From: Synergistaceae bacterium
GTDB lineage: Bacteria > Synergistota > Synergistia > Synergistales > Aminobacteriaceae
NCBI GenBank assembly: GCA_031280635.1
Contig: JAITGK010000150.1
Span: 1-15,118 of the forward strand
Length of the DNA stretch: 15,118 nucleotides
Direction: 5' to 3'
The notes under the pieces are model-generated. The model searched no databases. It had not been told where the DNA came from and saw nothing but the letters and a program-made list of their open reading frames with translations. This document shows positions 10,981 to 11,078 of the stretch, piece by piece. Positions within the stretch are counted from its first letter, which is position 1; each line of letters starts with the position of its first letter. The translations under genes and the position numbers were made by a program.

Positions 10981-11078
10981 TAGAGCCGTTGGCTCTTTTC
11001 CGCGCAAAGCTTTTGTTTTGCCGTTTACATCCGGATTTTGATCTCTTATTTCCGCGCGTGATTACGCGACCCGCTATA
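10981..11078 (-). repeat. Intergenic repeat element, type I copy C (inverted orientation), inserted between pyrB stop and pyrC RBS inside the pyr operon
   Basis: The reverse complement (aatatagcgggtcgcgtaatcacgcgcggaaataagagatcaaaatccggatgtaaacggcaaaacaaaagctttgcgcggaaaagagccaacggctcta) aligns end-to-end with copies A and B. It abuts the pyrB stop codon at 11079. Confidence 0.85.

Follow-up and report, generated by a model that had tools for sequence, protein, structure and literature searches.

A probable MITE-type element fills the spacer between pyrB and pyrC in the pyr operon of a Synergistaceae bacterium

The spacer between pyrB and pyrC of the Synergistaceae bacterium analysed here is filled by a repeat of about 98 nt (copy D; 10981-11078, minus strand; nhmmer 67.8 bits, E 1.3e-19), which in our view is probably a non-autonomous, non-coding transposable element of the MITE type (~98 bp). 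It belongs to a family that appears to have spread in gut-associated Synergistaceae, and in the pyr operon it would be a tolerated passenger. The window, which is the whole stretch of DNA that was analysed, comprises 15,118 nt and represents a complete contig of a Synergistaceae MAG. The size of the element, its missing coding capacity, its dispersed copies, its terminal inverted repeats (short and imperfect) and its presence/absence polymorphism are those by which MITEs are recognized.

The pyr genes of the window are all encoded on the minus strand and were assigned by Pfam as pyrR (12099-12707), pyrB (11079-12002), pyrC (9665-10963), pyrF (8778-9668) and pyrE (6463-7038); pyrK and pyrD are absent from the window. 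The pyrB stop codon TAA (11081-11079, minus strand) is directly followed by the first base of copy D at 11078. The head terminus TATAGCGGGTCGCG (11065-11078) represents the left arm of an imperfect terminal inverted repeat, the right arm of which is the tail hairpin AGAGCC-AAC-GGCTCT (10996-10982, 6 bp, about -7 kcal/mol). This hairpin is located 0-1 nt from the ribosome-binding site of pyrC and passes at once into its sequence AAGGAAGGA (10981-10973), which is followed after 9 nt by the ATG (10963-10961); the whole rest of the spacer (10961-10981) is intact downstream of copy D. On the mRNA strand the junction reads ...GGA TAA/TATAGCGGGTCGCGTAATC...AAAAGAGCCAACGGCTCTA/AGGAAGGACGGGAGACC ATG, or with the full element GGA TAA/TATAGCGGGTCGCGTAATCACGCGCGGAAATAAGAGATCAAAATCCGGATGTAAACGGCAAAACAAAAGCTTTGCGCGGAAAAGAGCCAACGGCTCTA/AGGAAGGACGGGAGACC ATG, and the pyr mRNA reads copy D from head to tail. 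The original prediction had described a repeat between pyrB and pyrC at exactly these coordinates, with the pyrB stop abutting the element and a terminal hairpin lying against the pyrC ribosome-binding site, and all of this was confirmed; further copies could be identified both in the contig and elsewhere.

Two other regions of the operon may be described at this point. A 1.7-kb segment of lower GC content (7039-8777), with an SPFH/Band-7 gene in opposite orientation (7623-8768, plus strand), parts pyrF from pyrE; in the relatives these two genes are adjacent (L009-L011) or parted by pyrK-pyrD (L015). A second and unrelated repeat family of about 65 nt is found at 7100-7165 (plus strand) and 12025-12089 (minus strand). 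These sequences are GC-rich and contain two hairpins, GGGGCTYCRCCCC and CTTARGGGYC-GTR-GRCCCYTAAG, of which the second differs in its arms by compensatory changes between the two copies. One copy fills the pyrR-pyrB spacer, the other one is located upstream of pyrE in opposite orientation and within a larger 25-nt inverted repeat (7092-7176). This repeat is absent from all fetched relatives and looks more REP-like than the 98-nt element.

The head motif of the 98-nt family (TATAGYGGNTYGCGTAA) matches seven times in the window if up to three mismatches are allowed, compared to 0.18 expected matches, and none of 200 shuffles reached seven; the tail motif AAAGAGCCAAYGGCTCTA matches five times compared to 0.01 expected. 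In the 15-kb contig five full copies (A-E) and one degenerate copy (F) are present, which is about one copy per 3 kb. Copy A (420-516, plus strand) lies 5 nt past the stop of a crp-like gene (522-1184, minus strand) and antisense to it, and its tail CCGCTATAA is a better complement of the head. Copies B (1985-2075, plus strand) and C (2084-2181, plus strand) stand in tandem, B being a member of a diverged subfamily that overlaps the 3' end of a Fer4 gene. A diverged subfamily is also represented by copy E (14469-14557, plus strand), which is located upstream of, and divergent from, an ankyrin-repeat gene. Copy F (about 14601-14706, plus strand; profile E 0.017) has an intact head, an internal insertion and a decayed tail. 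Copy lengths range from 88 to 100 nt, below the upper limit of about 300-500 bp for MITEs, without any coding capacity, and the sole overlap with an ORF is the accidental read-through from the Fer4 gene into copy B. There the element (1985-2026) replaces the stop of the ferredoxin-like gene (1271-2026) and encodes its last 14 codons, adding the residues FHSGLRNCEHQNSV. This tail is absent from all close homologues, which end in ...GE(I/V)LED. Side damage of this kind is what a selfish insertion typically causes.

At the CTAG of the copy C tail, next to a TsaD/TsaB-like ORF, an insertion sequence of the IS5 family (2178-3030) is inserted; its terminal inverted repeats are perfect over 22 bp, and its transposase is encoded in two separate frames, DUF4096 in the first and DDE_Tnp_1 in the second. 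Two isolated head-like motifs have no recognisable tail. One of them (TATAGCGGGTTGCGGTA, two mismatches; 4246-4274, plus strand) is located 60 nt upstream of a CDC48-like AAA ATPase gene, and the other one (TATAGCGGATCGCGCTT, three mismatches; 2432-2460, minus strand) falls within the transposase ORF of the IS5-family element and probably matches by chance. The contig also contains two perfect tandem arrays, (TGTGGCCC) x14.8 with an 8-nt unit at the contig start (1-118) and (CCTGGCT) x13.3 with a 7-nt unit (14310-14402), the latter about 90-180 nt upstream of the ankyrin-repeat gene (13067-14224, minus strand). Both have a copy of the 98-nt repeat nearby. As neither 8 nor 7 nt is divisible by three, the arrays may be contingency tracts that are prone to slippage.

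Outside the window, a scan for the pattern of head, gap and tail revealed eight copies at six distinct loci: L001 belongs to a Synergistaceae MAG, and L002-L008 are metagenome contigs with seven copies, which represent five distinct loci. With a profile built from 11 copies the five full copies and the degenerate one of the window were found, together with two in L006 (L006a and L006b) and one each in L001-L005, L007 and L008; the copies outside the window correspond to seven distinct sites. The same profile revealed no copy in about 100 kb of the relatives' loci. The copies of L003 and L004 are 94% identical in unrelated flanks, and those of L002/L007 are 90% identical to those of L005/L006 in different flanks. 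Such near-identical copies in unrelated surroundings argue for mobility. The copies are fairly diverged, D sharing only 73-77% identity with A and C, and the family may no longer be active.

All copies have the conserved ends TTATAGCGGTTTGC... and ...GCCAACGGCTCTAA. In the alignment of 12 distinct copies the ends TTATAGCGGTTTGCGTAATC... and ...CATAAAAGAGCCAACGGCTCTAA are strongly conserved and enclose a variable middle of about 45 nt. They form an imperfect 14-nt terminal inverted repeat (TTAKAGCSGTTKGC), in which 10-11 of the 14 positions match in eight of the 12 copies (5-11 overall); over 26 nt the match is 15/26 in the best seven copies and 10-15 overall. In copy D the head arm including A11079 reads ATATAGCGGGTCGC, and 9/14 positions match the reverse complement of the tail. 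TA...TA brackets every copy except the diverged B (CA...CA), usually in the form T-TA...TA-A. This fits a 2-bp TA target duplication, which with the available empty sites is inseparable from the element sequence. The empty sites of the relatives (GGATAA/GGGGG and GGATGA/AGGGCC) are too diverged to tell TA, TAA or no duplication, and for the Fer4 and crp 3' ends in relatives (76-78% protein identity) the nucleotide divergence is too high to place a target duplication. In L001 (on both sides), L002, L003 and L004 the termini also provide stop codons or border on them, the flanking ORF ending in the TAG of TTATAG or TTAGAG.

For the comparison of the pyrB-pyrC junction the pyr loci of seven relatives (L009-L015, six distinct) with PyrB proteins of 88-90% identity were used. 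Their spacers comprise 28, 12, 82, 16, 31, 31 and 16 nt and the element is found in none of the seven; the 82-nt spacer of L011 is an unrelated G-rich sequence. If the 98 nt are removed, the spacer of the window is AGGAAGGACGGGAGACC, 17 nt including the ribosome-binding site, which is in line with the relatives, in which G-rich Shine-Dalgarno sequences are found at the same distance from the pyrC ATG. The orthologous site is thus filled in the window and empty in L009-L015. Because the seven relatives lack the element and a spacer of ordinary length remains after its deletion, the 98 nt are an insertion specific to the Synergistaceae lineage of the window and not an ancestral spacer. The original prediction had opposed a mobile repeat to an ancestral spacer, and with relatives whose spacers of 12-82 nt are free of the element, and with other copies elsewhere, the comparison came out in favour of the mobile repeat.

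Upstream of pyrR a PyrR-binding attenuator with the box AGUCCAGAGAGGCU and a terminator could be identified (12666-12778, minus strand; RF00515 with 50.5 bits compared to a gathering score of 54, E 2e-05). Its terminator, a 15-bp stem with a T-run, overlaps the mechanically called GTG start of pyrR, and translation of pyrR probably begins at a GTG further downstream, at about 12641. By consensus scan a terminator-like site was found at 12707-12671 (minus strand), and the only promoter-like site in 9600-13100 was TTGACT-17-TATAAT (12824-12796, minus strand). The same scan revealed neither a promoter-like nor a terminator-like site in the element on either strand. Rfam matched no family in the element, neither over 10900-13100 at E<=10 nor at gathering scores over the whole window, no RF00515 was found in 10900-11100, and the scan for tRNA and tmRNA genes gave no hit. 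The element had been predicted to contain no PyrR box, which agrees with the RF00515 match at 12778-12666 (minus strand) instead. Since the sole promoter-like site is located upstream of pyrR and no terminator-like site is present in the element, co-transcription of copy D with the pyr genes is plausible. A single PyrR attenuator, upstream of pyrR, regulates the operon, and the 115 nt between pyrB and pyrC do not represent a regulatory leader.

As a result of the insertion the distance between the pyrB stop and the pyrC start increases about 7-fold, from about 17 to 115 nt, and for this reason the most plausible effect would be a loss of the tight translational coupling of pyrB and pyrC. For the Shine-Dalgarno sequence a mean probability of being unpaired of 0.19 was predicted with the element and of 0.23 without it. 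The suggestion that the element changes the context of the ribosome-binding site therefore holds for the length of the spacer, but not for the predicted accessibility, which is unchanged. That the element could be a neutral MITE insertion, as was suggested as well, is supported by the empty relatives and the other copies, the neutrality itself being a folding prediction.

The following course of events is proposed. A transposase encoded elsewhere would recognize the termini TTATAGCGGTTTGC and their imperfect inverse GCCAACGGCTCTAA and insert the element at TA-containing sites, a target rule which we infer from the observed pattern of locations. In this genome of about 60% GC such sites are found mainly at stop codons and in intergenic spacers. 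In the lineage of the window one copy was inserted behind the pyrB stop and ahead of the pyrC Shine-Dalgarno sequence and left both intact, as can be seen from the empty sites. With no promoter or terminator in or near the element, it would be transcribed from head to tail within a pyrR-pyrB-pyrC-pyrF mRNA, starting at the PyrR-attenuated promoter upstream of pyrR. It would be tolerated there as a passenger, which places only a small 6-bp hairpin near the ribosome-binding site, with the loss of coupling as its most likely effect.

It is unlikely, in our estimation, that the element has been exapted as an intercistronic RNA, in which the tail hairpin would be a site of processing, stabilise the pyrC-pyrF or pyrR-pyrB segments at their 5' or 3' ends, or uncouple pyrC translation from that of pyrB. 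Apart from a head stem of 3 bp, the consensus fold of the 12 copies consists of the 6-bp tail hairpin alone. No other conserved structure of any substance is present, and in L006b the hairpin is kept by one compensatory change (ATAGCC/GGCTAT). This is, however, the only compensatory change among nine predicted pairs, and a structured RNA is therefore not supported by covariation. The position of the hairpin immediately beside the ribosome-binding site and the 7-fold longer spacer would be compatible with such a role, and MITEs are able to alter the fate of transcripts, as described for RNase III on Correia and RNase E on ERIC elements (PMC10969869). The sense-strand fold of copy D is, on the other hand, not more stable than that of shuffled sequences (z -0.57 and -0.69; the antisense strand is modestly more stable, z -2.15). 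The predicted fold includes no head-tail duplex usable as RNase III substrate, that is no duplex of about 20 bp which this enzyme could cut, the accessibility of the Shine-Dalgarno sequence is predicted to be the same, and close relatives manage without the element. In these models we found nothing in support of a processing or stability role for copy D. The placement of the copies points in the same direction. Between co-directional genes they are found head-first (D, L002, B/C) as well as tail-first (L003, L004, L008, A), and others are located between convergent (L001, L006a) or divergent genes (L006b, E/F). The lack of a fixed orientation speaks against the family acting as a strand-specific RNA or as a promoter.

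We also regard it as rather improbable that a Y1 (HUH) transposase, with the conserved tail palindrome as the hairpin it recognizes, mobilized the element in single-stranded form; it would then be an IS200/IS605-derived palindrome-associated or REP-like sequence without target duplication and not a DDE-type MITE with terminal inverted repeats. The tail contains a near-perfect 17-nt palindrome (TAGAGCC-GTT-GGCTCTA), which is kept in nearly all copies, the terminal inverted repeats are weak, and target-site duplication beyond the conserved TA was not seen. Copies A, C and D additionally have a subterminal head hairpin (CGCGT-AATC-ACGCG), but this is missing from most subfamilies. Moreover, head and tail align as inverted repeats over 14 nt, the left flank has no fixed tetra- or pentanucleotide, unlike an IS200/IS605 target, and no Y1 transposase gene is encoded in the window. 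A MITE-type element with inverted termini remains the preferred reading.

Very little speaks for the assumption that the element carries transcription signals, either a terminator read from tail to head or an outward promoter, which would rewire the neighbouring genes including pyrC. Promoters are known in Correia elements and other MITEs (PMC10969869), several copies are located just past the 3' ends of genes, and the reversed tail AGAGCCGTTGGCTCTTTT(A/C) is a hairpin followed by four T. The consensus scan of both strands was nevertheless negative for such sites, and copy D is read in the other direction, where the hairpin is followed by AAGGAAGG and not by the T-run of an intrinsic terminator. 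The hairpin comprises only 6 bp (about -7 to -8 kcal/mol), and tail-first copies are also found between co-directional, closely spaced genes (L003, L004, L008). Finally, although additional attenuators between the early genes are a feature of Bacillus-type pyr operons, an ancestral spacer or conserved pyr regulatory leader (e.g. a second PyrR attenuator) with no more than a resemblance to other sequences is refuted by the seven relatives without the element, by the occurrence of the same sequence at unrelated loci, and by RF00515, which gives no signal in the element and matches only at the canonical PyrR box upstream of pyrR.

With respect to the enzyme that would move the MITE-type family, no autonomous partner IS with the termini TTATAGCGG... 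was found in the window and the fetched loci. The IS5-family insertion sequence at 2178-3030 does not come into question as parent element, since its 22-bp terminal repeat CTAGATACTGTCGTCACGAGAC is unrelated. An integron attC site, which the conserved ends and variable middle had suggested, was rejected as well, as by eye there are no RYYYAAC/GTTRRRY cores, the orientation relative to ORFs is not fixed, and no integrase is encoded among the scanned ORFs. BLAST of the element against plasmids and phages gave only a 21-nt chance match; in pattern scans of viral contigs the full pattern had no match and the tail pattern one chance match without a head beside it.

Well known prokaryotic MITEs are RUP of Streptococcus pneumoniae, ERIC/IRU of enterobacteria and Nezha of cyanobacteria. 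Like these, the family described here is about 100 bp long, non-coding and multi-copy, with conserved inverted termini and a variable interior. Its members are mainly intergenic, occur in both orientations and at filled and empty sites, and are occasionally co-transcribed or fused to gene ends. In contrast to classic MITEs the inverted repeats are imperfect and only about 14 nt long, a long stem-loop is lacking, and no partner IS was identified. The reported effects of MITEs on genes include promoters, IHF sites, processing by RNase III and RNase E, terminators and insertional changes (PMC10969869), of which only an insertional change is seen here, in copy B. MITEs in Synergistetes were mentioned neither in the literature search nor, by term, in a census of MITEs in 183,232 genomes. 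The repeats therefore most likely represent a MITE-type family of gut-associated Synergistaceae that is new so far as the literature searched goes. The family is dense in the contig, reshapes gene ends and sits inside an essential biosynthetic operon. Repeats of that kind can break or mis-join MAG assemblies and are usable as lineage markers. Copy D itself opens no new mechanism and is a real but ordinary feature.

REP, BIME and REPIN sequences are also extragenic, contain a short GC-rich palindrome comparable to the tail hairpin, and are found in operon spacers, where REPs can stabilise the upstream mRNA. A REP unit is, however, a single palindrome of 20-40 nt and a REPIN an inverted pair with a long hairpin, whereas the element described here comprises 98 nt with a mostly unstructured body and a distinct head and tail. 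An assignment to REP or REPIN was rejected, because the 98 nt contain only the 6-bp tail hairpin and the 3-bp head stem and no RAYT-like ORF is present in the window. With the PyrR-binding attenuator (RF00515) the element has in common that it is untranslated RNA of a pyr operon, but it does not match that family.

The Correia elements (CREE/NEMIS) resemble the family in several respects. Their terminal repeat begins with 5'-tatagtggattaa..., and they were reported to be unique to Neisseria (PMC5039591). The first 11 nt of copies A and C only (TATAGTGGATT) are identical to the start of the Correia repeat; the size range is similar, TA is found at both ends, and insertions are located beside genes and inside operons. 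Past nt 11 the sequences diverge, the family consensus here being TATAGCGGTTT. Correia elements have near-perfect 26-bp repeats (TATAGTGGATTAA(C/A)...) forming an RNase III substrate, whereas the repeats here are imperfect, comprise 14 nt and form no such duplex. An IHF-site consensus was not seen by eye, and the host belongs to the Synergistaceae and not to Neisseria. Identity with Correia was rejected because the 11 nt are shared by A and C only, head and tail form no duplex, and the host is a member of the Synergistaceae. There is only a slim chance that the family is a Correia-like, TA-duplicating element outside Neisseria, whose termini begin like the Correia repeat with TATAG(T/C)GG(A/T)TT, which inserts at the ends of genes and into operon spacers, and whose terminal TAG can act as stop codon of adjacent genes, or, as a second possibility, that operons such as pyr have recruited the tail hairpin at their ribosome-binding sites for uncoupling or tuning translation. 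We know of no transposase that moves Correia-type elements. The resemblance is only a lead to a possibly related transposase; should a full-length partner IS with such ends be present in Synergistaceae, the transposase family that moves elements of the Correia type could be recognized from it.
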